Origin: Ktedonobacterales bacterium
GTDB taxonomy: Bacteria > Chloroflexota > Ktedonobacteria > Ktedonobacterales > DATBGS01
DNA length: 64,000 nucleotides
Assembly (NCBI GenBank): GCA_036557285.1
Contig: DATBHW010000047.1
Coordinates: 37,001-101,000, forward strand
Reading direction: 5' to 3'
The translations under genes were made by a program, and so were the position numbers. Below the pieces are notes generated by a model that was not told the origin of the DNA, did not search any database, and saw only the letters and a program-made list of their open reading frames with translations. Of the stretch, positions 5,415 to 63,658 are shown one piece after another (position 1 is the first letter of the stretch; every line of letters begins with the position of its first letter).

Positions 5415-5506
5415 GAGGTCGCCTCTTCTGAGTGCGGTATTCCCTTTCCATCTGAGCGGTTGGCGCTATTCTAGCTACTCAGCCCTCTTCCGTCAAGCAT
5501 CTAGTA

Positions 5507-6215: not shown

Positions 6216-6482
6216 CTGCCACCGCTCCCGAAAGGCTCCACGCCTGGGTCGTTCTCCTTCTGCCTTTGCCTACGCATCACCAACACACCGCCTCCCAGGC
6301 ACAAGCGGCCACCCCCACACAGGCCCACGCCCGGCCAGCGCGCGGAGGGAAAGCGCCGCGTGGGAGCTTTGCCCCCACACAGCGCAGGCGCTGTGTGGGA
6401 GCTTTGCCCCCACACAGCGCCTGCGCTCGCACACCCGGCACCGTGGCGTCCCAACCCGCCAGGAGATGGCCGCTCAGGAAGA

Positions 6483-6686: not shown

Positions 6687-7052
6687 GGTTTCCACCACCT
6701 ATCGGGGCCGCGCCTGTACCGCCGCCGTCCCGGCGGCCCACCGCTGCGCCAGGGCGAGCGTGCGCCCTCCAGGCCACCGTCACTTGTAGCGCCGCCGTCC
6801 CGGCGGCCACCGCTGCGCCAGGGCGAACGTGCGCCCTCCAGGCCACCGTCACTTGTACCGCCGCCATCCTGGCGGCTCAACGCTGCGCCAGGGCGAACAT
6901 GCGCCCTCCAGGCCACCGTACCAGCAAGCCAGCGTCCAGCCGCCAGGATGGCGGCGCTACCAGTGAAGGCCGCGCGCGCTGCGGGCGGGGAGTCCCTGAA
7001 GAGGGACTTGGTGGCGGCGTGCCGCCTCCAGGCGCGGTTTTAACCGCCAGCC
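6687..7052. repeat. Family-A repeat cluster with three tandem 69-bp modules
   Basis: GGTTTCCACCACCTATCGGGG terminus. Module starts at 6781 and 6850 are exactly 69 bp apart. The right part carries the GGGGAGTCC...GGCGCGGTTTTAACCGCC submotif also seen at 44705-44772. Confidence 0.9.
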
Positions 7053-12965: not shown

Positions 12966-13034
12966 GCACGCGAACGCCGCGCTCGCGCCTGTTATTGAGG
13001 GCTTGCTATTGCTTATTATCAAGGAGTCTCTCTC

Positions 13035-14501
13035 ATGAGTACCGAACCGCTCATTTTCGAGATCGGCGCGCTGGGTCGGCGCGGCGCAACCCTGCCCGCC
13101 CTGGACGTACCCGAACAGCCCATAGATGATCTCATTCCGGCGGCCCTCCAGCGCAAGACGCCCGCCCCACTGCCCGAAGTCAGCGAGATCGAACTGGTGC
13201 GCCACTACACCCACCTCTCGCAGCGCAACGTCGGCGTAGACTCGATCTTCTATCCCCTCGGCTCCTGCACCATGAAATACAACCCCAAGATCAACGAAGA
13301 GATGCAGGCGCTGCCCGGCTTTGCCCGCATCCATCCTGCCCAGGATGAATCTACAGCGCAGGGAGCCATCCAACTGCTCTACGAGCTAGAACAGTACCTC
13401 TGCGAGATCGCGGGCATGACGCGCTTCACGCTCCAGCCCGCTGCCGGCGCGCATGGCGAAATCACCGGCCTGATGGTCATCAAAGCCTATCACCAGAGTC
13501 GCGGCGACACCAGGCGCAATATCATCCTCATTCCCGACAACGCGCATGGCACCAATCCCGCCAGCGCCACCCTGGCAGACTACCTGACCGTCGAAGTCCC
13601 CTCTGACCGGCGCGGCAATATGGACATAGCCGCGCTCAAAGCCGTCCTGGCCGAGCGCGGCAGCGAAGTGGCCGGCATCATGATGACCAACCCGAACACC
13701 CTGGGCGTCTTCGACGAGAACATCGAGACGATTGCTCGCATGGTGCATGAAGCGGGCGGTCAGCTCTATTATGACGGCGCGAACGCGAACGCCATCCTGG
13801 GCATCACGCGCCCCGGCGACATGGGCTTCGATGTCGTCCACCTCAACCTGCACAAGACGTGCAGCGTGCCGCATGGCGGCGGCGGCCCTGGCGCTGGCCC
13901 CATCGGCGTCAAAGCGCATCTCGTCCCCTTCCTGCCCGGCCCGCTGCCCGCAAAGAACGAACAGGGCTATTATTGGGAAGAAGCTGGCGCGCCATCCATT
14001 GGCCGCGTGCGCGCCAACTACGGCAACTTCCTGGCGCTCGTGCGCGCCTACACCTATATTCGCTTTCATGGCCCCGACGGCCTGCGGCATGTCAGCGACA
14101 GCGCCGTCCTCAACGCCAACTACATCATGCACGCGCTCAAGGATGTCTACGAACTGCCCTATGATCGCGCCTGCATGCACGAATGCGTGCTGTCGTCCCG
14201 CCGCCAGCGCGAGGAGTACGATGTCCACGCGACAGACGTTGCCAAGCGGCTCATAGACTTCAACATCCATCCGCCGACCATCTACTTCCCCCTGATCGTT
14301 CCCGAAGCCCTGATGATCGAGCCGACGGAGACAGAGACCAAAGAAACGCTGGACAACTTTATCGCGGTCATGCGCCAGATCGCAGAGGAGGCACAGACCA
14401 ACCCCGCCATCCTCCGCGAAGCGCCGCACCACACCCCCGTTGGCCGTCTCGACCAAACGCAGGCCGCCCGCAAGCCCGACCTGTGCTGGCTAGGAGCCTG
14501 A
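13035..14501 (+). CDS. gcvPB: Glycine dehydrogenase (decarboxylating) subunit 2
   Basis: 488 aa. PLP-lysine context [18 protein letters not shown] and [18 protein letters not shown]. Confidence 0.95.
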
Positions 14502-14504
14502 CAT

Positions 14505-14705
14505 GCCACTGGTAGCGCCGCCTTCCAGGCGGCCTCTGCCTGTACCGCCGCCGTCCCTGGCGGCCAACCCGCTGCGCCAGGGCCAACGTTCGCCCTCCAG
14601 ACCACCTGACCAGCCGGCCAACGTTGCGCCAGCACGGAGGCTGGCGGTACAGGCGCTCCCCACCCCGCCTGTACCGCCGCCGTCCCTGGCGGCGCTGCCA
14701 GTAAA
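14505..14705. repeat. Family-A repeat cluster
   Basis: Starts 4 bp after the gcvPB stop. CCACTGGTAGCGCCGCCTTCCAGGCGGC, CTGTACCGCCGCCGTCCCTGGCGGC, GCACGGAGGCTGGCGGTACAGG units. Confidence 0.85.
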
Positions 14706-14900
14706 ACGCCCTTCTTCAAGGGGGTCCTGGATAACGGCCCTGAATCGGCACGAGAATTGCTGACGGACTCCCAGAGAAGCCATACTTCCAGGCAGGAGCC
14801 TGGAGGCATGCTGTACTGATGAGGCTGACCAGAAAAAAAGCTTCCGGGTTCTGGTCTTTGTCAACGCGCAGCGGAGACAGGACACCTCCGAGAGATTCTC

Positions 14901-18898: not shown

Positions 18899-19177
18899 GA
18901 TTCCACCAACTATCGGAGGGCGCCACTGGTAGCGCCGCCATCTTGGCGGCTCGCCACTGGTAGCGCCGCCGTCCCGGCGGCTCGCCACTGGCTTGCCTGT
19001 ACATGGCGCTGGAGGGCAGACGCCACTTGTAGCGCCGCCATCCTGGCAGCTCAACGCTGGCCTGCTGGCACGTTGGCCTGAAAGGCGAGCGCTCGCCCTG
19101 GCGCAGCGGGGGCCGCCTGGAAGGCGGCGCTACAAGTACCATGCCTCGCTTGCCAACATCTCCTGTGTGGTGGAACC
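18899..19177. mobile_element. Family-A MITE-like element with flanking 9-bp direct repeats (8/9 identical)
   Basis: Termini GATTCCACCAACTATCGG... and ...GTGTGGTGGAACC. Flanks GGCGAACCT (18890-18898) and GGCGAAACT (19178-19186). Confidence 0.75.
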
Positions 19178-19264: not shown

Positions 19265-20215
19265 ATGTCGCTCTTTAACAAAGAGACGCCGGAACAGCAA
19301 GCCGCACGCGAGGCTGCCGAAGCGCGCGACGCCGCCAGTGTCGCCTCGCTGGAACGCGGCGGGCTGCCCATCCGGGCGCAGGAACGGCTGAGGCAAGAGC
19401 GCGGGCCGGATGGTCGCCCTAAAATCTGGACCAGCGACCTGTCCGTCAGCGAATTGCTCGCCAGCCGCTCGGTCAACTTCGAGCCGATCAGCCAGGTCTT
19501 CGGCTCCTCCATCTACCGCATGGCTTATCAGGTCGGCTCGTGGTCCTATAACAGCACCGGCGAAATCACCTCCTTCTCGCAGGCGCTGTACCACGCCCGC
19601 AGCCTGGCGTTGGGGCGGCTCTTGCAGGAGGCCAGCGCCCTGGGCGCGCATGGCGTCATCGGCGTCCGGCTGGAACACAAAGAATACGAGTGGGGCGCGA
19701 ACCTGCTGGAGTTTAGCGCGCTCGGCACAGCGGTGCGCCTGCGCAACTGGCAGGGCGAACTGCCCCTCCCCTTTACCAGCGACCTTTCCGGCCAGGAGTT
19801 CCTCAAGGTGCTGCACGCGGGCTATGTCCCGGTTACGCTGGCGATGGGCTGTGTCGCCTATTACATCGCCACCACCTGGAACGATGAATATGCCAAACGC
19901 AGTTGGACAAACCAGGAGATGGGAGCCTACACCCAGGGCGTCTATCGCGCCCGCCACCTGGCTTTTTCGCGCATGGCCGACGACGCGCGCCGGGTTCACG
20001 CCGATGGCGTCATCGGCTCCGATATTCACATGAAAGTGAAAGAAGTAACCGCCTATCGCAGAAGACCCTATAGCAACGAATCTGAGGCCATTGAAGATTA
20101 CATTATCGAGTTCTTTGCCTTCGGCACCACTGTCGCCGCCATCAGCGAGCGCCACGAAGTCCCCAGGCCACGTCTGGTCGTTGATCTCGAAGATTATCCC
20201 CCAAGCATCGAATAA
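19265..20215 (+). CDS. Tandem-YbjQ (UPF0145 / putative heavy-metal-binding) domain protein
   Basis: 316 aa. Two internal repeats of the TSDLS..E(F/L)L...G(F/Y).P...V.G....... pattern, each ending in G(V/I)IG(V/S) and F.A(L/F)GTAV, typical of YbjQ_1 domains. Confidence 0.8.
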   Translation: MSLFNKETPEQQAAREAAEARDAASVASLERGGLPIRAQERLRQERGPDGRPKIWTSDLSVSELLASRSVNFEPISQVFGSSIYRMAYQVGSWSYNSTGEITSFSQALYHARSLALGRLLQEASALGAHGVIGVRLEHKEYEWGANLLEFSALGTAVRLRNWQGELPLPFTSDLSGQEFLKVLHAGYVPVTLAMGCVAYYIATTWNDEYAKRSWTNQEMGAYTQGVYRARHLAFSRMADDARRVHADGVIGSDIHMKVKEVTAYRRRPYSNESEAIEDYIIEFFAFGTTVAAISERHEVPRPRLVVDLEDYPPSIE

Positions 20216-21964: not shown

Positions 21965-22582
21965 ATGCCGTCTTACCGGACATGGGAGACCTCTTCATCT
22001 ACATCAGGCGTCTCATCTGAAGAGAGCCGCCTTGTGGCGCGCGCCCAGGGTGGAAATCAGGCTGCCTTTGAGGCCCTCTATGAACACTATAATAACCAGA
22101 TTTGTCGCTACTTAATCCGCATGGTCGGCAACGACGGCGTTGGCTGCGAACTGGCGCAGGAAACCTTCTTGAAGGCATGGGAAGCCCTGCCCGGCTTGCG
22201 CGAGCCAGCCCGTTTTGCAAGCTGGCTCTATCGTATCGCCACCAACTGCGCCTATACCTATCAACACCGCGCCGGGCGGCTGCACCTTGTCTCCTGGGAT
22301 GTGTACGAAAGCGGCGGCGAAGAATTGAGTGTCGCCGGGCCAGAGAAACGAGTTGAGGAAACGGAACTGCTCAAACTCGCCCTGGCGCGCGTCTCGCCAA
22401 CCTATCGCCCATGCCTCATCTTATACGTCGTCGAAGACCTGCCACAACGCAAGATCGCTGACCTGCTGAAGATAAAGGAATCATCCGTGAGCAAATATGT
22501 CAGCCGGGGAAAAGAGGAACTGCGCCAGATCTATCATCGCCTGCTGAGAGAGCAGCTTACCCCCGCGAAAGGAGGGCGGTAA
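21965..22582 (+). CDS. ECF-type RNA polymerase sigma factor
   Basis: 205 aa. Region 2 (AQETFLKAWEAL, WLYRIATNCAYTY) and region 4 (LPQRKIADLLKIKESSVSKYVSRGK). Confidence 0.9.
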   Translation: MPSYRTWETSSSTSGVSSEESRLVARAQGGNQAAFEALYEHYNNQICRYLIRMVGNDGVGCELAQETFLKAWEALPGLREPARFASWLYRIATNCAYTYQHRAGRLHLVSWDVYESGGEELSVAGPEKRVEETELLKLALARVSPTYRPCLILYVVEDLPQRKIADLLKIKESSVSKYVSRGKEELRQIYHRLLREQLTPAKGGR

Positions 22583-22587
22583 GCGCC

Positions 22588-23913
22588 ATGCTCCACCAGC
22601 CTCCCTGCATAGACTGGGCAGAAAAACTGACCCTCAGATACGAAGACCTGACGCCCGACGATCAAGTCGCCCTGGATGCCCATATCAAAAGCTGTTCCGT
22701 ATGCCAGGCAGCCCAGGCCGACTATCATTTTCTTGACGCGCGCCTGCGCGCCTTACCACCCCCTGGCATCAAGCCGTTTCCGCGCCTTTCCTTTCCCGCC
22801 TCTCTGAAACAGGAAGCGAACGAAGCGGGCAGCCGCGTATTGCCTGCGCGCCAATCTTCCAGCGCCCGACAACACGCCCTGCACACCGGCCCGTTTATCG
22901 CCTTCATCAAAAGAGCCGGAACAGGCGCTTTGATCGCCAGCCTCGTGCTGACCCTGCTGATCCTGTTCAGCGGGCGCGGCGTCTTCAACCCCGCCGACGC
23001 CTATCCGCTGGGAGCTACGCTCTTCAGCTATCAACGACATACCTTTTTTGTCACTGCCGTCGCCTGGTCGCCTGATGGCCGCTATCTCGCCTCCGGCAGT
23101 TGGGACCACAGCGTCCAGGTCTGGAACGCCCGGACCGGCGCGCTCGTCTTTTCCTACCAGCAGAATGACAACGTGGATGCCCTTGCCTGGTCGCCCGATA
23201 GCCGCTATCTCGCCTCTGGCAGTTGGGATTTCAGCATCGAGGTGTGGAACATCGCAGAGCAGCGTCTCACCCAGGTGTATCAGGGGCATAACGGCATCGT
23301 CTCCGCCCTGGCCTGGTCGCCTGATGGTCGCTATCTCGCCTCTGGTAGTTGGGATGACACCATGCAGGTCTGGGATGCCAGAACGGGCGCCACCCTTTTT
23401 ACCTATCAGTATAACGAGATCGTGGATACGGTGGCCTGGTCGCCCGATGGCCGCTATCTGGCTGTCGGCGGGAGAGATGATTACGTCCATATCTTGAGCG
23501 CCCAAAGACCCTGGCCCCAACTTTACGTCTACGCAGGCTATCCCTACCAATGCGCTGAATGCGTGGTAAATGCCGTGGCCTGGTCGCCAGACAGCCGCTA
23601 TATCGCCTCTGGAGATAGGGCTGGCATCGTGCAGGTCTGGGACACGACAACCGGACGGCCTGTTATCACCTATAAAGGCCATACCGCTGACGTGTACGCG
23701 TTGGCCTGGTCGCCTGATGGCCGCTATATCGCTTCCGGCAGTGTAGACCGCACAGTCCAGGTCTGGCAGGCCATGACGGGCCTCTTGCTCGTCACCCACA
23801 CCGGCCACAGCCAGACTGTCGCTGCCGTCGCCTGGTCGCCTGATGGCCGCTATATCGCTTCTGGCAGTTGGGACAACACCGTACAGGTATGGCAGGCAAC
23901 CTACGATGGGTGA
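22588..23913 (+). CDS. Anti-sigma factor (zf-HC2) fused to an extracytoplasmic WD40 beta-propeller
   Basis: 441 aa. HIKSCSVCQAAQADYHFL zinc-finger motif, TM ALIASLVLTLLILFSG, then about 7 repeats of AWSPDGRY(L/I)ASGSWD...VQVW. Starts 6 nt after the sigma gene stop. Confidence 0.85.
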   Translation: MLHQPPCIDWAEKLTLRYEDLTPDDQVALDAHIKSCSVCQAAQADYHFLDARLRALPPPGIKPFPRLSFPASLKQEANEAGSRVLPARQSSSARQHALHTGPFIAFIKRAGTGALIASLVLTLLILFSGRGVFNPADAYPLGATLFSYQRHTFFVTAVAWSPDGRYLASGSWDHSVQVWNARTGALVFSYQQNDNVDALAWSPDSRYLASGSWDFSIEVWNIAEQRLTQVYQGHNGIVSALAWSPDGRYLASGSWDDTMQVWDARTGATLFTYQYNEIVDTVAWSPDGRYLAVGGRDDYVHILSAQRPWPQLYVYAGYPYQCAECVVNAVAWSPDSRYIASGDRAGIVQVWDTTTGRPVITYKGHTADVYALAWSPDGRYIASGSVDRTVQVWQAMTGLLLVTHTGHSQTVAAVAWSPDGRYIASGSWDNTVQVWQATYDG

Positions 23914-27734: not shown

Positions 27735-29003
<1,269 letters not shown>

Positions 29004-29009
29004 AGCGCG

Positions 29010-29270
29010 CTGAATACCACTTGCAGCGCCGCCACTTGTAGCGCCGCCATCTTGGCGGCTCAACGCTGGCCTGCTGGTCCGTCGGCCTGGAGGGCGCACG
29101 CCACTTGTAGCGCCGCCATCTTGGCGGCTCAACGCTGGCCTGCTGGTCCGTCGGCCTGGAGGGCGAGCGTTCGCCCTGGCGAACTGCTGGCCGCCAGGGA
29201 CGGCGGCGGTACAGGCCCCGCAGCCCCCTGCCGCCAAGATGGCGGCGCTACAAGTGGTAGCCGCAACCAT
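29010..29270. repeat. Family-A repeat cluster with tandem 69-bp modules
   Basis: Module starts CCACTTGTAGCGCC at 29032 and 29101, exactly 69 bp apart. The cluster closes with GCCGCCAGGGACGGCGGCGGTACAGG and GCCGCCAAGATGGCGGCGCTACAAGTGG. Confidence 0.9.
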
Positions 29271-29330: not shown

Positions 29331-29681
29331 CTACTTCTTGAGCAGCGGCAGCCCGTTGCTGTCTGTGAAACTGCCGGTAATGATCGTCACCAGATCAATG
29401 ATCGTCCAGACACCGCAGCCGCCGATGGTCAGCAGCATAGCGACACCTGTGCCGGTCTTCCCCACGTAGAAACGGTGAACACCAAAAGAACCGACAAACA
29501 GGCAGAGCAGCAGGGTGGTCAACCAATCCTTCTGCATTCCCGCGTACTGCATCGGCACACCCGGCTGCTGATAGCCTGCCTGGGGCGGATAGGGCTGCTG
29601 GTAGGGTTGCGACGGCTGCTGGTAGGGCTGCGATGGCTGCTGATAAGGCCCCGACGGCTGTTGGTAGGGCGGTTGCTGCAT
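29331..29681 (-). CDS. TM2 domain-containing membrane protein with P/Q/Y-rich N-terminus
   Basis: 116 aa. [36 protein letters not shown] matches the TM2 domain pattern. AAGGAG RBS. Confidence 0.85.
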
Positions 29682-30689: not shown

Positions 30690-30868
30690 CGTTCCACCCA
30701 AAAAAATGAGTCTGGCAAGCGAGGCATGGTACTTGTAGCGCCGCCATCCTGGCGGCTCAACGCTGACCTGCTGGTCCGTCGGCCTGGAGGGCGCACGCTC
30801 GCCCTGGCGAAGCGTTGGCCGCCAGGATGGCGGCGCTACAAGTGACGCCCTCGATAGGTGGTGGAACC
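30690..30868. mobile_element. Family-A MITE-like element with 9-bp flanking direct repeat (8/9 identical)
   Basis: Termini (C)GTTCCACCCAAAAAAATGAG...GGCATGGTAC and ...CTCGATAGGTGGTGGAACC. Flanks CTCTAGCCA (30681-30689) and TTCTAGCCA (30869-30877). Confidence 0.8.
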
Positions 30869-34661: not shown

Positions 34662-34972
34662 CAACAACGCTCCAATTCTGGCCGCCAGGCACACGCGCCC
34701 AACCAGCGCAGCCAGCGTATCCGTTGCAAGATCAGCAGGCAATCCTTCTCAAAAAGAGCAGAGACTCACTCTATAATAACGCGCCAGCTATCCCCTCTAT
34801 AACCCGAATTGCGCCGCCAGCTATTCTATCAAATCTTCTTGAATGCTTGCGGATGCTACTGGCAGTATCCCTCTTCCTTTCTGGCCCCCTTGCCAGCTTC
34901 CCCGCAAGCGGCTATAATTACGAAAAGGCGAGGAGGCAGCAAGCCCGATTCGCAAGGAGGCTTCGTCACACC

Positions 34973-36697
34973 ATGCGCGTAACACCTGCCCGGCGATCTC
35001 TGCTCTTTGCGCTTGCCAGGCGCCTGAGCCTGGCTTTTGTGTTTGGGGCACTCATCAGCCTCCTCGGCGGGCTATGGCAAAGTTCTCTCAGCTATGCCGT
35101 CCTGGCGGATGCGCTGCTGCTGCGCTTCCTGCTGGACCGCCGAGAATGGGCGACCAAATCCTTTTGGGATCAAGCGCCCTGCCTCCTGTTTCTTCCTTTG
35201 TACGCCATTGTAGCCACATATAATCTGAATTTTGGCCTGAACAAAACGCTGGGGCTGACAGCCCCCTGCTTTAGCATCGCGCTGATCGCCGCGATGATCT
35301 TCTGGGCGAAAACGCCTTTGCCGCGCGCCTTTCCACTGTCGCCAGCCTATGGGCTGGCGGCTGCATCCGGCGCGCTCGTCATGTTCCAGATCGTCTTTCA
35401 CTTTCGCGCGCTAGACAGCGGCATCGTCCTCCTCGCACTCCTTCTGGCCGTCATAGGGAGCCTGCTTGGCGGACTCTTACACGTCTTCGCCGCATTTATT
35501 CGCACACTTCCCAGGCACTACATCTGGAAATATCACTTCTGGAAATATTACTCCTGGGTGAGAAGTGTAAGAGGCGTTGCGACTCCAGCCCTGGAGAAGC
35601 CGACCCGGGAGGAGCCACCACCGCCCGCCAGAAGCACCCTATCGCGGCGCACCGTCCTGGCGGGCCTGGTCGGTGCAGGTGGATTACTCGCCACCGGAGC
35701 CGGAGTAGCCTGGCTGACGCGCTACGTTGCTCCTCATTCTCTTGCGCTCGTCACCTACAAGGGGCATGAAGATGGCGTCTTCATACTTGCCTGGTCGCCC
35801 GATGGCTCACGCATCGCCACCGCAGGCGGGGACATAGATAAAACCATCCAAATCTGGGAAGCCACCTCTGGCAAAACACTGCTGACGTATCGCGGGCATG
35901 CCGACGGCCTTCTTATATCAAGCCTCGCCTGGTCGCCGGATGGCCGTCAGATCGCCTCAGCAGATTTTAAGGAAAACCTCCATATCTGGGACACCGCTAC
36001 TGGTGGTCATATGGTCACATATACCAAGCGCGGCTTCATTGCGCAGTGGTCGCCCGATGGCAGGCGCATCGCTTCGTCGGACTTCCACAGTATTCAGATT
36101 CGGGATGCCCTCACCGATACCCTGCTGCTTACCTATCAACCACAGCAGTTTGCGCCATGCGCTCTGGCCTGGTCCCCTGGTGGCACGCGCATTGTCGCTG
36201 GAAGTTCTGCTGGTGACGAGTTCCCGCCAGGCGTGCATGTTTTCAATGCTGTCACCGGCGAAACAATTGCTCTCTATAACAGCCATATCAGCAGCGTGAG
36301 AACAGCAATCTGGTCGCCCGATGGCAAGCGTATCGCCTCAGCCAGCATCGATCTTGTCATAGACACACCCCCGAACCAGATAGTCCAAAAAGACCCAACA
36401 GTCCACATCTGGGATGCCAGCACTGGCAAGCAGTTCTTCAGATACCGGGGACATACTGATACCGTCAATGGCGCGGCCTGGTCGCCTGATGGCAGGCGCA
36501 TCGCCTCAGCCAGCGACGATGAAACTGTGCAGGTCTGGGACGCTGATACCGGCAGCCATGTCTTCACCTATCACAACAGTTTTCTGCCGGATATTCATCC
36601 GTCACAGGTCGCCTGGTCGCCCGATGGGCGATTGATCGCTTCGGCCAGCTACGACTTTGGTGGGGACGCGCAAGTCTGGGTACCAGAAAAGACATGA
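34973..36697 (+). CDS. Polytopic membrane domain plus internal Tat-like motif plus WD40 beta-propeller protein
   Basis: WD40 repeats (AWSPDGSRIAT, AWSPDGRQIAS, WSPDGKRIASAS, AWSPDGRRIASASDD). Preceded by SRRTVLAGLVGAGGLLATGAG and about 6 hydrophobic helices. The start is uncertain; the track ORF begins at 34724. Confidence 0.75.
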   Translation: MRVTPARRSLLFALARRLSLAFVFGALISLLGGLWQSSLSYAVLADALLLRFLLDRREWATKSFWDQAPCLLFLPLYAIVATYNLNFGLNKTLGLTAPCFSIALIAAMIFWAKTPLPRAFPLSPAYGLAAASGALVMFQIVFHFRALDSGIVLLALLLAVIGSLLGGLLHVFAAFIRTLPRHYIWKYHFWKYYSWVRSVRGVATPALEKPTREEPPPPARSTLSRRTVLAGLVGAGGLLATGAGVAWLTRYVAPHSLALVTYKGHEDGVFILAWSPDGSRIATAGGDIDKTIQIWEATSGKTLLTYRGHADGLLISSLAWSPDGRQIASADFKENLHIWDTATGGHMVTYTKRGFIAQWSPDGRRIASSDFHSIQIRDALTDTLLLTYQPQQFAPCALAWSPGGTRIVAGSSAGDEFPPGVHVFNAVTGETIALYNSHISSVRTAIWSPDGKRIASASIDLVIDTPPNQIVQKDPTVHIWDASTGKQFFRYRGHTDTVNGAAWSPDGRRIASASDDETVQVWDADTGSHVFTYHNSFLPDIHPSQVAWSPDGRLIASASYDFGGDAQVWVPEKT

Positions 36698-37486: not shown

Positions 37487-37665
37487 AGTTCCACCCCCTA
37501 TCGGGGGTTGCCACTTGTAGCGCCGCCATCTTGGCGGCTCAACGCTGGCCTGCCGGTCCGTTGGCCTGGTGGGCGAACGCTCGCCCTGGCGCAGCGTTGG
37601 CCGCCTGGAAGGCGGCGCTACAAGTACCATGCCTCGCTTGCCAACACCTCATGTTTGCTAGAACC
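37487..37665. mobile_element. Family-A MITE-like element with perfect 9-bp flanking direct repeat
   Basis: Termini AGTTCCACCCCCTATCGGGGG... and ...CCAACACCTCATGTTTGCTAGAACC. AACGCTCAG is present at 37478-37486 and at 37666-37674. Confidence 0.85.
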
Positions 37666-38944: not shown

Positions 38945-39065
38945 CTATGCCTTTTGGTTTAGAGCGCCTCACACAACCTCCGCACGAGCAGGGGCGGGGT
39001 TGTAGCGCCGTCCTTCCAGGCGGCAGGGGTGGGGCCAACCGTCGGTTGTGTGAGGCATTCTTAGG
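38945..39065. repeat. Family-B ~110-bp palindromic element (copy 1 of 3)
   Basis: TAGAGCGCCTCACACAACCTCCGCACGAGCAGGGGCGGGGTTGTAGCGCCGTCCTTCCAGGCGGCAGGGGTGGGGCCAACCGTCGGTTGTGTGAGGCATTCTTAG. Near-identical copies at 55340-55450 and, inverted, at 61735-61850. Confidence 0.85.
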
Positions 39066-39145
39066 AGAGAACCTTTTTGTCTTCATTCTGAGCCAGCGCG
39101 GCTAAGCCTGCCTGTAATAGCGCATCCTGTTGAATGCCCACGGTT

Positions 39146-41490: not shown

Positions 41491-43092
41491 TCATACCCCC
41501 GCCTCTTCTGGTGGTTCGGTATGAATCAAGACCGCGCCAAGGGGCGGCAGTTCTGCCCGCAGCGCCCGCTCAATCTCTTCCGCCTGCACATGCACCTGCT
41601 GAATGGGCGCGGCCCCCGAAAAAGTGCAGTGCAGCACCAGATCATAGAGCGGCGCTTCCGGCGTCGGCGGCTGCTCCTCCGCGTGATTCATCACCCGATA
41701 GACATGGACCTCGTGGCAGCTTCCCCGTCCGGCCACCTCATCGGCAATCCGGCGCACCCGCGACACCAGGGCTGGCTGCTCCGCCGAAACATCGCGCCGA
41801 TGCTCCACACTCACATCTGGCGCTTCCAGGTGCGTCGTCACGCGGCGCACCGCCGGATACGCCCGATAGATCGCGCGCTCCAGACGAGTTGCCGCATCAT
41901 GCGCCGCCCGCAGGTCCAGATCGGGGTCCACCTCCAGATGCAAATCCGCTTCCAGCGCGTCAGTCCCACGCTCTTCTTCCAGAACGCGCACGCGCACATC
42001 ATGCGCCCGCAAGTCCAACTCCAGCGCCAGATAGTGAATACCCTGGGCCGTCGTTTCCGCCGCCGTTTCCGCCGGTTCCACATGCACCACCACATCCACA
42101 TCCGCCTGGGGCGCATCGGCGCACACAGCCTCGCGCGCCGCGCGCTCCACCGCCTCCGTTACCGCGTGGGCATGCTCGAACGTCGCTGTGCGCGGCGCGC
42201 CCACGACCAGATCGGCAAAAAGCTTGTTGCCTGCCCGGCGCGTTCGCACCCGCCGCACATCCACCACGCCTTCTACGCCCTGCGCGGCGTGTTCCAGCGC
42301 CGAAGGGAGCGTATCTGGCGCTCGGTCCAGCAGGGCATCCAGCGTCTGGCGCACCAGCCGAAAGCTGACCCAGATCACAATCAGCGAAACGCCCAGCGCC
42401 GCCACCGCGTCGGCCTGTCCCAGCCAGGGCACAGCAACCGCCTGACCGATGCGCACCGCCACCAGCCCTAGAATCACCACCACCGAACTCCAGATGTCGG
42501 TGCGAAAATGCAGCGCGTCAGCCTCCAGCGCCTGGCTTCCCTGCTCCTTTGCCACGCGCATCAGCGCCCGCGAGCGCGTAGCGTCCACCGCAATGGAAAC
42601 GGCCATCACCAGAAACGTCCAGATACTGGGGTCCACCTGACCTTCATGCAAGAGCAAACGCCGCAGCGCCTCATAGATGATCCAGCCCGCCGTCAGCAGC
42701 AGCAGCCCGGCCTCCAGAAACGCCGAAAGGTTCTCGAACTTGCCATGCCCATAGTTATGCGTCTCATCTGGCGGGCGATCCGCCACGCGCACCGCCACCA
42801 GCGTCATCAGCGCGGCCACCAGATCAAGCCCCGAATGCGCCGCCTCGGCCAGAACGCCCAGGCTGCCGCTGAGCAGGCCCACAATCAGCTTCAGGCTGGT
42901 CAGCCCGACAGCCGCCAGCACCGACGAAAAGGCCACCAGCCGCTTCTCTTGCGCCCCCGTTCGACCAGTTCGGCCTGCTGCTCTGGCGCTGGCGGAGCTT
43001 GCGGCCCCTGGCGTCCAGTTCCGACGCCGTTTTGAGTTTTCAGAAGGGTCAGTCGCTGGCGTCCTCTGCCTCGCTGGCGGGGCAGATGGCAT
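41491..43092 (-). CDS. Cation diffusion facilitator (CDF) family transporter with extended C-terminus
   Basis: 533 aa. SLKLIVGLLSGSLGVLAEAAHSGLDL, HNYGHGKFE, and ADALHFRTD motifs. AAGGAGG RBS. About 200 aa lie beyond a normal CDF length. Confidence 0.85.
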   Translation of the reverse strand: MPSAPPARQRTPATDPSENSKRRRNWTPGAASSASARAAGRTGRTGAQEKRLVAFSSVLAAVGLTSLKLIVGLLSGSLGVLAEAAHSGLDLVAALMTLVAVRVADRPPDETHNYGHGKFENLSAFLEAGLLLLTAGWIIYEALRRLLLHEGQVDPSIWTFLVMAVSIAVDATRSRALMRVAKEQGSQALEADALHFRTDIWSSVVVILGLVAVRIGQAVAVPWLGQADAVAALGVSLIVIWVSFRLVRQTLDALLDRAPDTLPSALEHAAQGVEGVVDVRRVRTRRAGNKLFADLVVGAPRTATFEHAHAVTEAVERAAREAVCADAPQADVDVVVHVEPAETAAETTAQGIHYLALELDLRAHDVRVRVLEEERGTDALEADLHLEVDPDLDLRAAHDAATRLERAIYRAYPAVRRVTTHLEAPDVSVEHRRDVSAEQPALVSRVRRIADEVAGRGSCHEVHVYRVMNHAEEQPPTPEAPLYDLVLHCTFSGAAPIQQVHVQAEEIERALRAELPPLGAVLIHTEPPEEAGV

Positions 43093-43189
43093 AACAACCT
43101 GCCTCCTTTACCCATAGCTCATAGCTTATCCGACACCTATTCCATCATCCATTGTAAGCCATCAGGAAAAGAAGCGCAAAGCGCGGCAC

Positions 43190-43555
43190 GTGGATGAGGT
43201 TCTACCACCTGGCGGGGCGCCACCCGTACCGCCGCCATCCTGGCGGCTCACCGCTGGCCCGCCGCTCCGCTGGATTGGAGGGCGCACGCCACTGGTACCG
43301 CCGCCATCCTGGCGGCTCACCGCTGGCCCGCCACTACGCTGACCTGGAGGGCGCACGCCACTGGTAGCGCCGCCTTCCAGGCGGCTCACCGCTGGCCCGC
43401 CACTCCGCTGACCTGGAGGGCGCACGCCACTGGTAGCGCCGCCATCCTGGCGGCTCAACGTTGGCCCGCCACTACGCTGACCTGGAGGGCCACCGCTCGC
43501 CCTGGCGCAGCGTTGGCCGCCGGGGACGGCGGCGCTACACGCGGCTGACGCCCGC
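43190..43555. repeat. Family-A cluster with four tandem 69-bp modules
   Basis: CCACTGGTA(C/G)CGCCGCC starts at 43289, 43358 and 43427, each 69 bp apart, preceded by a more diverged unit. Closes with GCCGCCGGGGACGGCGGCGCTACACGC. Confidence 0.9.
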
Positions 43556-43599
43556 TTCCCCCAAAAAGTCCTATTGCCGCAAAAATACGCGCCCGATGC

Positions 43600-43628
43600 T
43601 TGACATAGGCGCATCAAGCAGGTATACT
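43600..43628 (+). promoter_or_regulatory. Near-consensus sigma-70 promoter (TTGACA-17 nt-TATACT)
   Basis: TTGACA at 43600-43605 and TATACT at 43623-43628. The first RBS-supported start codon downstream is at 43910. Confidence 0.6.
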
Positions 43629-44351: not shown

Positions 44352-44772
44352 GCCTGCCCTCCAGCGCCGCCTTCCAGGCAGCCACTGGTAGCGCCGCCTT
44401 CCAGGCGGCCACCGCTGCGCCAGGGCGAGCGGTCGCCCACCAGGCCACCGTACCAACAGGCCAACGTTGAGCCGCCAGGATGGCGGCGCTACAAGTGGCG
44501 TGCGCCCTCCAGACCACCTTACCGGCGGCCCACCCGTACCGCCGCCGTCTCGGCGGCTCAACGTTGGCCCGCCACTCCGATGGATCGGAGGGCGACCGCT
44601 CGCCCTGGCGCAGCGGTGGCCGCCTGGAAGGCGGCGCTACAAGTGACGTGTGCCCTTCAGGTCAGCGTACCGGCAGGCCAGCGTTGCGCCGCCCAGGCGC
44701 GCCAGGGGTGGGGAGCCTGTGCAGACAGGCTTGGCGGCGCAGCCTCCAGGCGCGGTTTTAACCGCCAGCCCC
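44352..44772. repeat. Family-A repeat cluster (multiple modules in both orientations)
   Basis: Begins 2 bp after the 43910..44350 stop and ends at the stop of 44773..45348. Contains the GGGGAGCCTGTGCAGACAGG...GGCGCGGTTTTAACCGCC terminal submotif. Confidence 0.9.
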
Positions 44773-50134: not shown

Positions 50135-50376
50135 GGTTCTACCAAATCTGAGGTGTTGGCAAGCGAGGAGTGTTACTTGTAGCGCCGCCGTCCCTGGCGG
50201 CCACTTGTAGCGCCGCCATCTTGGCGGCCAGCGTTAGCCCGCCGGAACGCTGGCCCCAAGGGCGAACGCTCGCCCTGGCGCAGCGGTGGGCCGCCTGGAA
50301 GGCGGCGCTACAAGTGGGCGCTCGCCAGGGCGCAGCGGTGGCCGCCTGGAAGGCGGCGCTACAAGTGGCCCCGAAC
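50135..50376. repeat. Family-A repeat cluster
   Basis: Left terminus GGTTCTACCAAATCTGAGGTGTTGGCAAGCGAGGAGTGTTAC. The right end is truncated (…CTACAAGTGGCCCCGAAC). The flanks share only AACTTA. Confidence 0.8.
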
Positions 50377-52169: not shown

Positions 52170-52325
52170 GCGCAACACCACTTGCCGCACCGCCTTCCTG
52201 GCGGCCACTTGTAGCGCCGCCATCCTGGCGGCTCAACGTTGGCCCGCCGGGACGCTGGCCTGGAGGGCGAACGCTCGCCAGGGCGCAGCGTTGGCCGCCA
52301 GGATGGCGGCGCTACAGGTGGGGTT
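52170..52325. repeat. Family-A repeat filling the gap between two convergent genes
   Basis: CCACTTGCCGCACCGCCTTCCTGGCGGCCACTTGTAGCGCCGCCATCCTGGCGGC ... GCCGCCAGGATGGCGGCGCTACAGGTGG. Confidence 0.85.
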
Positions 52326-55339: not shown

Positions 55340-55450
55340 GCTAAGAGCGCCTCACAAAACCTCCGCACGAGCAGGGGCGGGGTTGTAGCGCCGTCCTTCC
55401 AGGCGGCAGGGGTGGGGCCAACCGTCGGTTTGTGAGGCATTCTAAGAGCG
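55340..55450. repeat. Family-B palindromic element (copy 2 of 3)
   Basis: CTAAGAGCGCCTCACAAAACCTCCGCACGAGCAGGGGCGGGGTTGTAGCGCCGTCCTTCCAGGCGGCAGGGGTGGGGCCAACCGTCGGTTTGTGAGGCATTCTAAGAG. Confidence 0.85.
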
Positions 55451-57529: not shown

Positions 57530-57849
57530 CCACATCCCGCCGTCCCGGCGGCCAACTCGGCCAACTCGTAGCGCCGCCGTCCCGGCGGCCACTGCCGCGC
57601 CAGGGCGCGCGTGCGCCCTCCAGCGCGAACGTATCAGCAGGCCAACGGTGAGCCGCCAAGAGGGCGGCGCTACGGGTTGGCAGAAGCCAGGCGGGTTACT
57701 TGTAGCGCCGCCTTCCAGGCGGCCAACGCTGCGCCAGAGCGAGCGTGCGCCCTCCAGCGCGAACGTATCAGCAGGCCAACGCTGGCCGCCAAGATGGCGG
57801 CGCTACAAGTAACAGACCTCGCTTGCCAACACCTCAGATTTGGTGGAAC
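57530..57849. repeat. Family-A repeat cluster
   Basis: Starts 3 bp after the msrA stop and ends with the terminus ...CTCGCTTGCCAACACCTCAGATTTGGTGGAAC. Confidence 0.85.
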
Positions 57850-58015: not shown

Positions 58016-58153
58016 ATGAAACGCACCTGGCAACCCAAACGTATACCTCGTAAAAGGGAACATGGTTTTCTCAAGCGCATGTCCACACGCGGAGGCCGCA
58101 AAGTGCTGCGCGCCCGGCGGCTCAAGGGCCGCTGGCGGCTGACCGTCGTGTAG
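58016..58153 (+). CDS. rpmH: 50S ribosomal protein L34
   Basis: My own translation: [45 protein letters not shown] (45 aa), an unmistakable L34. GAGGAAG RBS. Too short for the ORF track. Confidence 0.95.
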
Positions 58154-58203
58154 CAGCGCGGGCGCGCAGCCCAGGCGCGGGCGCCAAGGCGGGAGGCGCG
58201 CGA

Positions 58204-58650
58204 GTGATCTGCGAGACGAGAAGGAGAGGCATGCAGGCGGAAACGCAGGAGATGCTCCGACCCAGGATTCTACAGAATGCGCACAAACCGGCTCGCTTGA
58301 AAAAAGCGCGCCAGTTTCAGCATGTCCGCCAGCAGGGGCGCTCAGTGGGCAGCGCCTTGCTGACACTGGGTTGGGCGCCCAACGCCCTCGCCTTTTGCCG
58401 CTGCGGCTATACGGTGGGCAAGCGCGTCGGCGGGGCCGTCACCCGCAATCGCGTCAAGCGCCGCCTGCGTGAAATCATCCGCCTGGCAATCAAGGCAGGC
58501 CATGTTGCCCCCGGCTACGATCTCGTCTTGATTGCGCGGACCGGCGCCGCGCAGGCAACCTACGAACAACTTGCCACCGATGTCACTCATCTGCTGCAAC
58601 GCGCCCATCTCTGGCAGGCTGACTCGCCGGAAGGACTCGTTCTATCATGA
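58204..58650 (+). CDS. rnpA: Ribonuclease P protein component
   Basis: RNR motif [16 protein letters not shown] and synteny after rpmH. The true start may be an internal ATG at 58231 or 58252. Confidence 0.9.
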
Positions 58651-58859
58651 AATATGTCGCGCTCGGCCTCATTCGTTTCTATCAAAAGTTCATCTCGCCC
58701 ATGACACCGCCGAGTTGCCGGTTTGAGCCTACCTGCTCGCACTACGGCTACGAAGCCATCCAGAAACACGGCTTCTTTCGTGGTGGCTGGCTGACTATCA
58801 AACGCATCGGGCGCTGCCACCCATTTTATAACGGCAATTTGTATGATCCCGTACCCTGA
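58647..58859 (+). CDS. yidD: Membrane protein insertion efficiency factor YidD
   Basis: 70 aa. YQKFISP...[19 protein letters not shown]...[12 protein letters not shown] overlap with rnpA. Confidence 0.95.
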
Positions 58860-59007
58860 GAAGGGTACGCCGATGGCGCAGCAAGGAGTTTGGGGTGAGC
58901 TATCAATCGCTCATAGTGTGGTATCATCAGCTAGCATTTATCCATCATCGTCCCGCTAGTGGCGCAGCGCCTCGGAAGCGCTCGGCCAGCGCAGGGGAGG
59001 GCTTCGC

Positions 59008-60321
59008 GTGGACTTGTTAACGATACTCAGAGATATTTTCTACTTACCTATCTTCAACGTTCTGATGTTCCTGTTCTGGCTGGTCCGCGACTTCGGGCTG
59101 TCCATCGTCTTGCTCACCATCATGGTCCGTATGGCCCTGGTGCCGCTGACCTTCAAGCAACTGCGCTCCCAGCGCAGGATGATGGAGCTTCAGCCGCAGT
59201 TGAACGCCCTGAAGGCCCAGTATGGCGACGACAAGCAGGGCTTTGCCAGGGCGCAAATGCAGTTCATGAAGGAAAATAACGTCAGCATGCTTGGCGGCTG
59301 CCTGCCCTTGCTCGTCCAGCTTCCTTTCCTGTATGGCCTGTTCTACGCCCTCAGCAGCGGCGTGAGATCAAACCCAGGGGAAACGATTGCGCAGCATGTC
59401 CAGCGCATGAATGGCGATCTCTATCCCTTCATGCACTTTGCCAGCGTCACCCTGCCGGGCGGCTTGCATCCGCTGAATACCCTGCTGGAGTGGTTTAGCT
59501 GGCTGCCGGGGCATCCGGTGCTTGATCTCAGCCTCGCCGACCCCACCCATATACTGCCGATTTTGGCCGCGCTCTTCACCTTCATTCAGGTGCGCATGAT
59601 CCAGGGCGTGCGCAAGCCGCCGCAGCTTGAACCAGGGGCCGACCCCAAGAAAGTCGCTCAGGCAAACGTCCAGCAGCAGACGATGAGCCTGATGACCTAC
59701 ATCACCCCGTTCTTCACACTCTTCATCGCCTGGCAGTATGCCGCTGGCCTCTCGCTCTACTGGGTCGTTGGCACGTTGTTTGCCGTGGGACAGCAGTACG
59801 TCATCTACGGCTGGGGCAGCCTCTTCAAGGGCATTCCCCGCCTGGATGAATGGGCAGCGAAAAAGAACGCCGAACGCGAGGCGCGCCGCGAGGCAAAGCT
59901 CATCGCCAAAGGCGTCATCTCCGCGCCCACCGTCGTTGAAAGCAGCCTGGTGTCGAAAAACGGCGCGGCAAAGAACGCCGGGGGCGGCGGACGCCGCAAG
60001 GACTGGATTGACCAGGCCAAAGGAGAGACAGAACAGGCGTCCAGGGGAAAAGAGCGCGCCCAAAGCGCGCGCCCATTCCCCTCGCTGATGAAACCGAAAG
60101 AAAGTCCCGCAACGGCCAACCCGCCAAAGGCCGCGCCCCCGGCCCCCAATGGGGCAGCCAATGGCAGCAAAACCGATACAAAAACCAGCGCGGGTGTCGG
60201 AACAGCGCCCAAGGGCGGCGGCCCGACCACTCCCCCCAGGGCGGGCGGAGCGCCGCACAACCAGCGGAGGGGCCAGTCGCGCAGTGGCAATATACCCAGG
60301 CCAAAGGGAGGCAAAAAATAG
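59008..60321 (+). CDS. yidC: Membrane protein insertase YidC/Oxa1 family with long basic C-terminal tail
   Basis: 437 aa. PLTFKQLRSQRRMMELQPQ, GCLPLLVQLPFLYGLFYAL motifs. The C-terminal ~130 aa are K/R/G/P-rich. Confidence 0.9.
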   Translation: MDLLTILRDIFYLPIFNVLMFLFWLVRDFGLSIVLLTIMVRMALVPLTFKQLRSQRRMMELQPQLNALKAQYGDDKQGFARAQMQFMKENNVSMLGGCLPLLVQLPFLYGLFYALSSGVRSNPGETIAQHVQRMNGDLYPFMHFASVTLPGGLHPLNTLLEWFSWLPGHPVLDLSLADPTHILPILAALFTFIQVRMIQGVRKPPQLEPGADPKKVAQANVQQQTMSLMTYITPFFTLFIAWQYAAGLSLYWVVGTLFAVGQQYVIYGWGSLFKGIPRLDEWAAKKNAEREARREAKLIAKGVISAPTVVESSLVSKNGAAKNAGGGGRRKDWIDQAKGETEQASRGKERAQSARPFPSLMKPKESPATANPPKAAPPAPNGAANGSKTDTKTSAGVGTAPKGGGPTTPPRAGGAPHNQRRGQSRSGNIPRPKGGKK

Positions 60322-61326
60322 GTGGACAGTGTCGAAGCCAGCGGCAAAACCATTGATGACGCCGTACTCCAGGCATTAGCGCGCCTGGGCAGACGCCGCG
60401 ATGAGGTCAATATCGAAGTCCTGCAAGAACCCAGCCGAGGCTCGTTCGGCCTGGGCATCCGTGATGCGCGCGTTCGGGTCACGCTCAAACAGCGACGGCC
60501 ATCATCCGGCGCGATCATCACCCCCGAAATGGCCGACGCGCTGCTTGGCTTCAGCGAACCCGCTCCTCCTCCGGCTGCGCCAGGACGCGCCCAGCAAACG
60601 CCAAAGCAGAGCCAGCCACGCCCGCCCATCGGCCCCCAGCCTGACGAAGAAGAAGAGGACGAGGAGGAAGAGTATCTGGAGGACGAGGAGGAAGAAGAGG
60701 AGTATCTGGAAGAAGGCGAAGAATATCTAGAGGACGAGGAGGAAGAAGAGGAAGAAGAGGAAGAAGTGTTCCCCGGCCTGCGCAGCCGCGCGGCTGTCGC
60801 TTCAGACCTCGAAACCTTCGAGGAAGAAGAAGAACTCCTCGAAGGCGAGACTGGCCCGGTCAGCCGCGAAGTCGTCTCCACCTCGGTAGAAGTGCTGCAA
60901 ACCATCCTGCATCACATGGGCATTCGCGGGCAGGTCGAAGTGCGCAGCCGCGACCCGCTCACCCTCAACGTGCGCATGGAAGACGGCCTCGGCCTGCTCA
61001 TCGGGCGGCGCGGCGAAACGCTCGCCTCGCTCCAGTTGCTCGTCAACCTTATCGTCAGCCACCAGATCAAACACCGCCAGCGCGTCATCGTAGACGTAGA
61101 AGACTACCGGCTGCGCCGCGAAGAAAACCTGCGCCAGCTTGCCTTCCGTATCGCCCAGCAGGTGCGCCAGTCGCGGCGGGCCATCCCCCTGGAAGCCATG
61201 CCCGCCAACGAGCGCCGCATCATCCACATGGCCCTTTCCGACAGCAACGACGTGATGACCCACAGCGAAGGCGAAGGCGACCAGCGCCGCGTCATCATCT
61301 CCCTGCGCCGCACCACCGGCAGATAA
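60322..61326 (+). CDS. jag: Jag/SpoIIIJ-associated KH + R3H RNA-binding protein with acidic insert
   Basis: N-terminal Jag_N (GKTIDDAVLQALARLG), KH (GLLIGRRGETLASLQ), R3H (ERRIIHMAL). GTG start adjacent to the yidC stop. E/D/Y-rich insert at about aa 105-150. Confidence 0.9.
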   Translation: MDSVEASGKTIDDAVLQALARLGRRRDEVNIEVLQEPSRGSFGLGIRDARVRVTLKQRRPSSGAIITPEMADALLGFSEPAPPPAAPGRAQQTPKQSQPRPPIGPQPDEEEEDEEEEYLEDEEEEEEYLEEGEEYLEDEEEEEEEEEEVFPGLRSRAAVASDLETFEEEEELLEGETGPVSREVVSTSVEVLQTILHHMGIRGQVEVRSRDPLTLNVRMEDGLGLLIGRRGETLASLQLLVNLIVSHQIKHRQRVIVDVEDYRLRREENLRQLAFRIAQQVRQSRRAIPLEAMPANERRIIHMALSDSNDVMTHSEGEGDQRRVIISLRRTTGR

Positions 61327-61734: not shown

Positions 61735-61850
61735 CTAAGAATGCCTCACACAACCGACGGTTGGTCCCACCCCTGCCGCCTGGAAGGACGGCGCTACAAC
61801 CCCGCCCCTGCTCGTGTGGAGGTTTTGTGAGGCGCTCTCAGCCGCCTCAA
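61735..61850. repeat. Family-B palindromic element (copy 3 of 3, inverted)
   Basis: CTCTAAGAATGCCTCACACAACCGACGGTTGGTCCCACCCCTGCCGCCTGGAAGGACGGCGCTACAACCCCGCCCCTGCTCGTGTGGAGGTTTTGTGAGGCGCTCTCAG. Confidence 0.85.
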
Positions 61851-63437: not shown

Positions 63438-63658
63438 CCTTGTAGCGCCGCCGTCCCTGGCGGCCACTTGTAGCGCCGCCTTCCAGGAGGCAGGAGGGGC
63501 TGAGGGGGCGTGTACCGCCGCCTTCCAGGCGGCCAACGCTTCGCCAGCACGAGCGCCTGCCCTTCAGCGCAACGTTCCGGCAGGCCAGCGTTGAGCCGCC
63601 TGGAAGGCGGCGCTACAAGTGTACCCCCCGATAGGTGGTGGAACGCTTTCACGTCGAA
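63438..63658. repeat. Family-A repeat cluster flanked by a 10-bp direct repeat
   Basis: GCGGCCTGTT at about 63428-63437 and again at about 63659-63668. The interior ends ...CCCCCCGATAGGTGGTGGAAC followed by the small hairpin GCTTTC-ACGTC-GAAAGC. Confidence 0.75.

Follow-up and report, generated by a model that had tools for sequence, protein, structure and literature searches.

Background and overview of the repeat family

Repetitive extragenic palindromes (REPs) are defined by a GT[AG]G sequence at the foot of a hairpin (PMC6006769). GTAG repeats have been reported as head-head, tail-tail and head-tail dimers as well as tandemly reiterated clusters, Chloroflexi included, and their subfamilies differ by 'alternative complementary stem residues' (PMC3733652). 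The Escherichia coli enzyme TnpAREP binds the GTAG-tagged hairpin when the DNA is single-stranded, cleaves C^T steps located next to REPs and within linkers, and catalyzes strand transfer; it has been proposed to excise circles and to assemble tandem bacterial interspersed mosaic elements (BIMEs), the copy number of which varies among strains (PMC3333891). Here, we analyzed 64 kb of DNA (the window, meaning the whole stretch under analysis) from the metagenome-assembled genome of an uncultured soil Ktedonobacterales bacterium (Chloroflexota), in which the matching contig, 137 kb long, has its proteins on record as HEY7349482-HEY7349498. The window harbors a GTAG-tagged family of a known kind, resembling REPs, REPINs (inverted REP doublets) and BIMEs, and its 69-bp tandem units are probably half of such an element repeated head to tail and mobilized by a REP-associated tyrosine (RayT-type) transposase. 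We know of no earlier report of REPs in Ktedonobacterales; the present data extend REP/BIME-type elements to the Ktedonobacteria, at approximately one hairpin per kb. Apart from this very high density, the family is noteworthy for half-element modules that recur at a regular 69 nt and join within hairpin loops, and for the combination of a hairpin head found across phyla with a spacer private to the lineage.

Anatomy of the element

Scanning for GTA[G/C]CGCCGCC-N5/6-GGCGGC, each half being allowed a single mismatch, led to 67 copies of the hairpin GTA[G/C]CGCCGCC-N5-GGCGGC in 64 kb, and the strict N6 pattern alone has 19 matches against 0.83 expected from shuffles. The tag is located one base before a 7-bp stem and reads GTAG in 52 of the 67 copies, GTAC in 12 and otherwise in 3. 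Two such hairpins in inverted orientation make up the basic element, a doublet with 16 copies in the window. It measures 105±1 nt, counted from GTAG through CTAC, and has the consensus CACTT-GTAGCGCCGCC-ATCYT-GGCGGC-TCAACGCTGGCCTGCTGGTCCGTCGGCCTGGAGGGCGAACGCTCGCCCTGGCGCAGCGTTG-GCCGCC-TGGAA-GGCGGCGCTAC-AAGTG. Its spacer of 61 nt is asymmetric and bears two small inner hairpins. The copy taken as reference has a folding energy of -52.2 kcal/mol, against -27.2±3.0 for shuffles (z = -8.45):

37517..37621, unstranded: reference doublet, whose single-strand fold is one long hairpin

The 69-nt unit is half of this doublet. Specifically, an A-type unit comprises the leader CACTT (5 nt), the hairpin (22 nt) and spacer positions 1-42, and a B-type unit follows the same plan read from the opposite end of the doublet; both arms come from the one asymmetric spacer of 61 nt, read on either strand. 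A unit always stops at the 3' edge of an inner hairpin's loop.

Rfam 15 gave no match at the gathering score over the whole window, and only sub-threshold matches to generic long hairpins. Three other classes of repeat were considered and set aside. The arrays are not of the CRISPR type, as the entire 69 nt is repeat, leaving no unique spacers, and the window has no cas domains. Neither are they integron attC sites, which would call for a GTTRRRY core and an integrase, nor terminators, given that a T-tract is missing and the elements lie in both orientations.

Tandem arrays of 69-nt modules

Three arrays of period 69 were detected by TRF at 43218-43490 (4.0 copies, 92% matches), 29026-29165 (2.0 copies, 98%) and 6715-6919 (2.9 copies, 93%), and their units align exactly when written as rows of 69. 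A first-pass annotation of this DNA had placed the unit starts exactly 69 bp apart at three loci. This spacing is confirmed, hairpin starts being 69/69/69 nt apart in the array at 43220, 69 nt in the one at 29033 and 70/69 nt in the one at 6715; a fourth locus with a 69-nt step (18960->19029) was added. The conserved arm of about 40 nt described there is present in the arrays at 43220 and 29033 (TCAACGCTGGCCTGCTGG...) but not in the one at 6715, which carries the other arm, CAACGCTGCGCCAGGGCGA..., the sequence that the spacer's other end has on the complementary strand. Because of these differing arms the three arrays fall into two kinds, A-type and B-type, and each of them closes with a complete inverted doublet. 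Their parts and immediate surroundings are:

43220..43495, plus strand: A-type array of four head-to-tail 69-nt modules (TRF), with rows starting at 43220, 43289, 43358 and 43427
43226..43454, plus strand: the four REP hairpins of this array, each with a 7-bp stem and a TCC triloop
43226-43247, plus strand: first hairpin (GTAC, ATCCT)
43295-43316, plus strand: second hairpin (GTAC, ATCCT)
43364-43385, plus strand: third hairpin (GTAG, TTCCA)
43433-43454, plus strand: fourth hairpin (GTAG, ATCCT)
43433..43538, unstranded: terminal complete inverted doublet (GTAG...CTAC, 106 nt) closing the array
43516-43538, minus strand: second hairpin of the terminal doublet (GTCCCC)
43600..43628, plus strand: sigma-70-like promoter TTGACA-17-TATACT just past the array
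29033..29212, plus strand: two A-type modules with hairpins at 29038-29059 and 29107-29128, the second continuing into the doublet 29107-29212
6711..6960, plus strand: three B-type modules with hairpins at 6716, 6786 and 6855, the last continuing into the doublet 6855-6960
18929..19133, plus strand: mixed cluster of a REP-only unit (31-nt period), one A-type module (18960->19029) and the doublet 19029-19133

Each module of the first array consists of a CAC(T/C)(G/C) leader, the REP hairpin and 42 nt of spacer with the end ...GGAGGGCGCACG(C). The array itself is established between the promoter and the start of a divergent cation-efflux gene (41491-43092, minus strand).

At the A-type join, ...GGAGGGCGCACGC is followed directly by CACT(T/G)GTAG. 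This was found in the arrays at 43220 and 29033 (in the latter GGGCGCACGC is joined to CACTTGTAG), in a unit cut short at 44493-44530 and in the additional unit that another assembly of the same organism carries (L242, see below), and close variants of it occur at 18960-19029 and 44641-44690. A normal doublet reads ...GGGCG(A/C)ACGC^TCGCCC at this point, which places the A-type break at the 3' edge of the central hairpin loop, at a C^T step. The B-type join (GGCCACCGT joined to CACTTGTAG at 6711..6960) falls at the loop of the other inner hairpin, and modules of 51 nt have their break at the central loop as seen from the opposite side.

Among same-strand intervals in the window, 69 nt is the commonest (6 of 19, plus one of 70), but it is not the sole period, since the same element also gives 28-31, 51, 52 and 134 nt. 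Hairpin-only reiterations of 28-31 nt are located at 1946-1995, 18929-18981, 50179-50228 and 63442-63491, a spacer-only duplication of 52 nt at 9498-9601, and a tandem 51-nt unit (part of the spacer plus the hairpin) at 50267-50368. The duplication of 134 nt at 57568-57806 is the only one that repeats a whole doublet. Concerning orientation, 10 of the 13 head-to-tail clusters, among them the four arrays of 69-nt units, have their GTAG strand on plus, a bias (10 plus vs. 3 minus) that is not significant (p = 0.09). All hairpins of the window taken together number 43 on the plus and 24 on the minus strand, and GC skew is negative throughout.

Loop repertoire and covariation

A 6-nt loop drawn from a small set on a constant stem had been proposed in the first-pass annotation to reflect a recognition code. 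Such a code is not supported. The variable segment is 5 nt long in 54 of the 67 copies (ATCCT, ATCTT, TTCCA, GTCCC, GTCTC), the 6-mers of the annotation having included the first G of the 3' stem, and true 6-mers are mostly GTCCCT (9 copies). The five 5-mers named make up 52 of the 54 copies. Also in 52 of 54, the outer two bases of the 5-mer form a Watson-Crick pair (A-T 23, T-A 20, G-C 9); the middle three are TCC (38) or TCT (15). The stem, moreover, varies in a compensated manner: its seventh pair, over 49 distinct sequences, is A-U in 20, U-A in 18, G-C in 9 and other in 2, which amounts to 27 double-change cells against 8.8±2.5 in shuffles, a value reached by 0 of 500 shuffles and lost when the partner column is slid. 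Overall, 98.8% of the stem cells are paired. The loop set is one covarying closing base pair combined with a C/T choice in the triloop, and this variation is the ordinary subfamily structure of GTAG repeats. When loop usage was compared with position in the array, no positional rule was seen in what is a small sample. The only association found for loop type is with the ends of the doublet, which differ in closing pair: the A end prefers A-T (14 to 3) and the B end T-A (12 to 6; Fisher p = 0.006).

Genomic location and spurious reading frames

All 67 copies lie outside supported genes (61% of the window), with the exception of one 13-nt overlap with an uncertain start. Clusters are found in tandem, convergent and divergent gaps alike and in both orientations. 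Several frames are open at once on both strands across the arrays, and two of them had been singled out as artefacts:

43162..43617, minus strand: artefactual open reading frame (ORF) of 151 aa, whose translation is a 23-aa Gly/Pro/Arg/Ser repeat
28395..29270, minus strand: second such array ORF, 291 aa

Both exist and look artefactual as suggested, the first being open because of the 23-codon period of the array. The array ORFs have no Pfam domain and no homologue among 5.8 billion protein clusters, and their GC content at codon position 2 is 0.74-0.77 (0.77 for 43162..43617), compared with approximately 0.40-0.50 in Pfam-supported genes. The JGI annotation called genes over two of the arrays, and short-read (Logan) contigs end within an array. 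Repeats of this type break short-read assemblies and yield false ORFs that annotation pipelines call genes.

Module number in assemblies of the same organism

The same organism is represented by JGI contigs from 3300036826, 3300036835, 3300036857, 3300037153 and 3300041948, which cover positions 965-35660 and 37926-64000 of the window. Compared loci and assemblies carry L-numbers as labels, and L246, L247, L242, L251 and L123 are other assemblies of this organism. Outside the repeat clusters they are at least 99.96% identical to the window, and the differences are nearly all in hairpin repeats. The earlier suggestion of a modular repeat of variable copy number is borne out by whole 69-nt steps between these near-identical genomes. 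Comparing array lengths at orthologous loci, we found five units against four in the array at 43220, two against one at 30735 and at 63553, and two against one of the 51-nt modules at 52272, that is, +69 nt relative to the window at three loci and +51 nt at one, always in register. The three loci apart from the 43220 array are:

30735..30839, unstranded: doublet with one A module, of which L242 has two (12996-13133) with the same junction
63512..63621, unstranded: doublet whose A module (63553-63621, minus strand) is double in L251, with GGGCAGGCGC joined to CACCTGTAG
52211..52322, unstranded: doublet to which L246 and L251 add a 51-nt module made up of the second hairpin and a portion of the spacer (52272-52322 in the window); this module is also the one in tandem at 50267-50368

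The extra unit at 43220 is present in both L246 and L247. It is in register and carries a foreign arm, with about a dozen positions unlike its neighbors. At the 30735 locus, the two A modules of L242 have identical arms, including a locus-specific base, while their heads differ (TACTT leader and ATCCT vs. CACTT leader and TTCCA). Unchanged arrays are those at 29038 (same in L242), 18960 and 6715 (same in L123, L124 and L214). The nearest relatives of the units in an array are mostly their own neighbors. This comparison is direct evidence for variable module numbers inside a natural population, with assembly collapse as a partial alternative that is taken up below. In this one population, whole-module gain and loss exceeds point differences in number.

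Close relatives and distant genomes

In relatives with a GcvPB 95.5-96.3% identical to that of the window (e.g., GCA_037024435.1, GC 58%), the gcv operon is syntenic and no such hairpin occurs in up to 21 kb. Compared with these genomes, the window has an insertion of about 390 bp, a cluster of repeats lying between the stop codon of the phosphodiesterase gene and the promoter of gcvT. Seven further relatives were reached via rpmH, and only one lineage among them has copies (GCA_035307385.1, approximately 79-85% DNA identity), in the form of a compact 54-nt doublet. The family is recently and massively expanded in this Ktedonobacterales lineage. Relatives without the family keep one solitary hairpin, GTGGCGC(C/T)GCCGTCTCTG(G/A)CGGCGCG, beside a helix-turn-helix gene (L224 at ~17010 and L218 at 19607-19629, both on the minus strand), and this hairpin resembles the GTCCCT-type singletons of the window. 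A different kind of repeat separates L218 from L219 in a related species, namely one 357-bp (119-aa) tandem repeat in a PAS-domain sensor gene (13198-14871 vs. 13198-14514).

The exact 22-nt head GTAGCGCCGCCNTCYNGGCGGC was found by a genome-collection scan in at least eight phyla among the matches listed, mostly Acidobacteriota, but also Planctomycetota, Verrucomicrobiota, Nitrospirales, Chloroflexia, Dormibacterota, Hydrogenedentota, Binatia and others. Additionally, it occurs in 12 IMG/VR contigs (viral or prophage). At the distant loci, 77 of 124 copies have an inverted partner ending in GCTAC at most 220 nt away; such copies are usually one end of a GTAG...CTAC doublet of ~50 or ~96 nt, and their inner hairpins also have xTCYx loops. 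The closing-pair/loop set GTCCC, GTCTC, TTCCA and ATCTT is common to unrelated phyla. The 61-nt spacer, on the other hand, is present only in this organism among 1.7 Mb of compared DNA. Two metagenome scans were also run, one of which was empty and the other gave only single-copy matches, from other organisms.

Proposed mechanism and alternative explanations

We consider it probable that the 69-bp units are half of a REP/REPIN/BIME-type element, repeated head to tail and mobilized by a RayT-type (HUH, Y1) transposase that would be encoded elsewhere in the genome. Directly observed, and underlying this view, are the element's anatomy, its stem covariation, its position between genes, the lack of such repeats in close relatives and the unequal module numbers of different assemblies. 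By analogy with E. coli TnpAREP, the elements would act as single-stranded DNA hairpins, with the enzyme cutting at leader and inner-loop sites and then rejoining the ends. Such cutting and rejoining would lead to fixed junctions, in-register gain and loss, a foreign unit within an array and no target duplications. The A-type junction at ...CGC^TCG... is a C^T step, as for TnpAREP cuts. Homologous slippage or unequal exchange between the 26-nt identical stretches of junction plus head could also delete or duplicate exactly one unit, and it probably contributes, since a unit's closest relatives are mostly found in its own array. The differing heads on identical arms point to short-patch exchange among many copies.

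Several findings weigh against this interpretation. A profile of 120 RayT proteins matched nothing in the window, in its flanks of about 13 kb or in the loci of the relatives; the sole match among compared loci was a truncated gene in one acidobacterial locus. No match was obtained either by tblastn of the window with E. coli RayT, IS200 TnpA and a RayT consensus, and of the 7866 matches of such a consensus in a protein database none among the best 120 was named Ktedonobacterales. As no RayT gene was found in ~77 kb, we only infer mobilization by such an enzyme. One RayT gene per genome is the norm, and its absence from ~77 kb therefore says little either way. The generality of the arrays also rests on these ~77 kb of the genome (window plus flanks). 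The B-type junction (..ACCGT joined to CACTT) is no C^T step, and head-to-tail order is said to be rare in most REP families (PMC3733652). Finally, all four REP-module differences shorten the window, as would a collapse of tandem repeats in its assembly; this is countered by the missing units differing from their neighbors and by two independent assemblies agreeing on five units.

A more far-reaching version of the transposition hypothesis, which we regard as rather unlikely, would treat the 69-nt module as a minimal self-targeting single-strand transposon, and the 22-nt head together with its enzyme as moving horizontally. Each module would comprise one REP hairpin and, at its 3' end, its own cleavage and target site (the inner hairpin loop edge, ...CGC^T), and a RayT-type enzyme would insert and excise whole modules in register, giving mosaic arrays of mixed origin. 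The foreign fifth unit of L246 and L247 suggests such a mixed origin, and a head found in at least eight phyla next to a lineage-private spacer would imply horizontal movement of the head with the enzyme. If true, this would contradict the view of strictly vertical REPIN-RAYT systems. The fixed loop junctions and the cross-phylum head offer testable handles on array building of the RayT type.

Among the alternatives, retention of the arrays mainly for a host function with tuning by copy number (as terminator, mRNA stabilizer, protein-binding or supercoiling site, or divergent-promoter spacer) appears unlikely. REPs elsewhere have such roles, some copies lie just after stop codons or within an operon (9316 after the phosphodiesterase gene, 12850 and 12881 between gcvPA and gcvPB), and the G·T closing pairs of the GTCCCT subtype are strand-specific. 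However, the clusters occupy all types of intergenic gap in both orientations, the hairpins are followed by no T-tract, the array at 43220 is upstream of two divergent genes rather than behind one, and close relatives run the same operons without any copy. Individual copies may have a function of this kind.

Still less credible is a nature as miniature inverted-repeat transposable elements (MITEs), derived from a classical DDE insertion sequence and mobilized by it, with the GTAG hairpins as its terminal inverted repeats. The doublets do have long imperfect terminal inverted repeats (CACTTGTAGCGCCGCC...GGCGGCGCTACAAGTG), and extended ends recur (CGAGGCATGGTA and CGGGGGTTGCCA). Yet the best direct repeats flanking the doublets are 2-4 nt long, the same as at random positions, so that target-site duplication finds no support, and the window contains no transposase of any kind; furthermore, single hairpins, half-elements and in-register modules of 69 and 51 nt are unlike the cut-and-paste movement of a MITE with fixed ends.

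We judge as very improbable a recognition code in which the loops would be read by different proteins or RNAs. The restriction to five 5-mers and the preference of doublet ends for different types would fit it, but the variation reduces to the closing pair and the triloop choice described above, the same set recurs in unrelated phyla, no positional rule was seen in the arrays, and differing heads on identical arms indicate frequent exchange instead of positional assignment. As for a real protein with 23-residue repeats, the open frames across all three arrays and the JGI gene calls speak for it, but the chance is practically nil given the lack of Pfam matches and homologues, a codon-position GC unlike that of real genes, frames open on both strands and the same sequence lying in both orientations across intergenic space.

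Other features of the window

The genes of the window are ordinary chromosomal ones, comprising the glycine cleavage operon, a sugar ABC transporter, MurT/GatD, rpmH-rnpA-yidD-yidC-jag and extracytoplasmic function (ECF) sigma factors with WD40 partners. rpmH, rnpA, yidD, yidC and jag are located in their usual order at 58016-61326, and the window is therefore probably near the replication origin region. A long insert of acidic, low-complexity sequence (60643-60766) is present in Jag. The window has two genes for ECF-type sigma factors (regions 210-1843 and 21965-23913). In the second region, the sigma gene (21965-22582) is followed by that of a membrane protein (22588-23913) with a C-terminal WD40 propeller, whose 123-bp repeats are visible in the DNA (23055-23459), and a second WD40 membrane protein is encoded at 34724-36697. 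A small TM2-domain gene, the second of its kind (29331-29681, minus strand; 116 aa in the JGI call), contains a 21-bp tandem repeat at 29593-29670.

Two further repeats were noticed. One is a second family of about 105 nt, with three copies approximately 97% identical (38961-39066, plus; 55344-55450, plus; 61735-61838, minus), bounded by GCCTCACAAAACC...GGTTGTGTGAGGC around a core, GTAGCGCCGTCCTTCCAGGCGGC, that is REP-like; its fold is a long hairpin with branches, and Rfam gave no match to it. The other is a tandem 35-bp hairpin repeat, GCGCTGCGTGGGAGCTTTGCCCCCACACAGCGCAG, at 6353-6427, which is unrelated to the 69-nt modules and in which L123 has a 50-bp deletion (position 5423).

Comparison with known systems

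The ends of IS200/IS605 elements (IS608, ISDra2) share with the present family a sub-terminal hairpin, a short guide sequence at its 5' foot, the lack of target duplication and what is thought to be a single-stranded DNA substrate. Unlike these elements, the repeats described here enclose no transposase gene and, as doublets of 105 nt or modules of 69 nt, are below the size of an insertion sequence.

With the BIMEs of E. coli and TnpAREP (Ton-Hoang et al., 2012, PMC3333891) the family has in common REP-linker mosaics, two REP types distinguished by compensated stem changes, a tandem copy number that differs by strain and a proposed origin by cleavage at C^T steps and strand transfer. Specifically, the closing-pair preference of the two doublet ends is reminiscent of how E. 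coli REPs divide into types Y and Z. In BIMEs, however, the REPs alternate in orientation and the whole unit is in tandem, whereas the 69-nt arrays directly repeat one hairpin together with a portion of the spacer. The 7-bp stem is also perfect here, in contrast to the mismatch that TnpAREP needs.

Another close system is that of the GTAG-tagged REPs (Di Nocera et al., 2013, PMC3733652), among them the GTAG-23 family, which is clustered in Thermomicrobium roseum (Chloroflexi), a comparison made by their published description. The features in common are a short stem-loop rich in GC, with GTAG at its 5' foot and a loop of 2-3 nt, subfamilies with complementary stem changes, dimers in all orientations, tandem clusters that include flanking DNA and an extragenic location. 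The difference lies in the fixed 69-nt head-to-tail reiteration, which is frequent here and rare or absent in most of those families.

Finally, the REPINs of Pseudomonas (Bertels and Rainey, 2011, PMC3116915) are likewise inverted REP doublets with a conserved spacer and a long-hairpin fold, accompanied by singlets and higher-order clusters. REPIN-RAYT systems have been described as long-lived and vertically inherited, whereas relatives whose housekeeping proteins are about 95% identical lack the present family at syntenic sites. Also unlike REPINs, the elements of this Ktedonobacterales lineage combine a head common to distant phyla with a spacer of their own.

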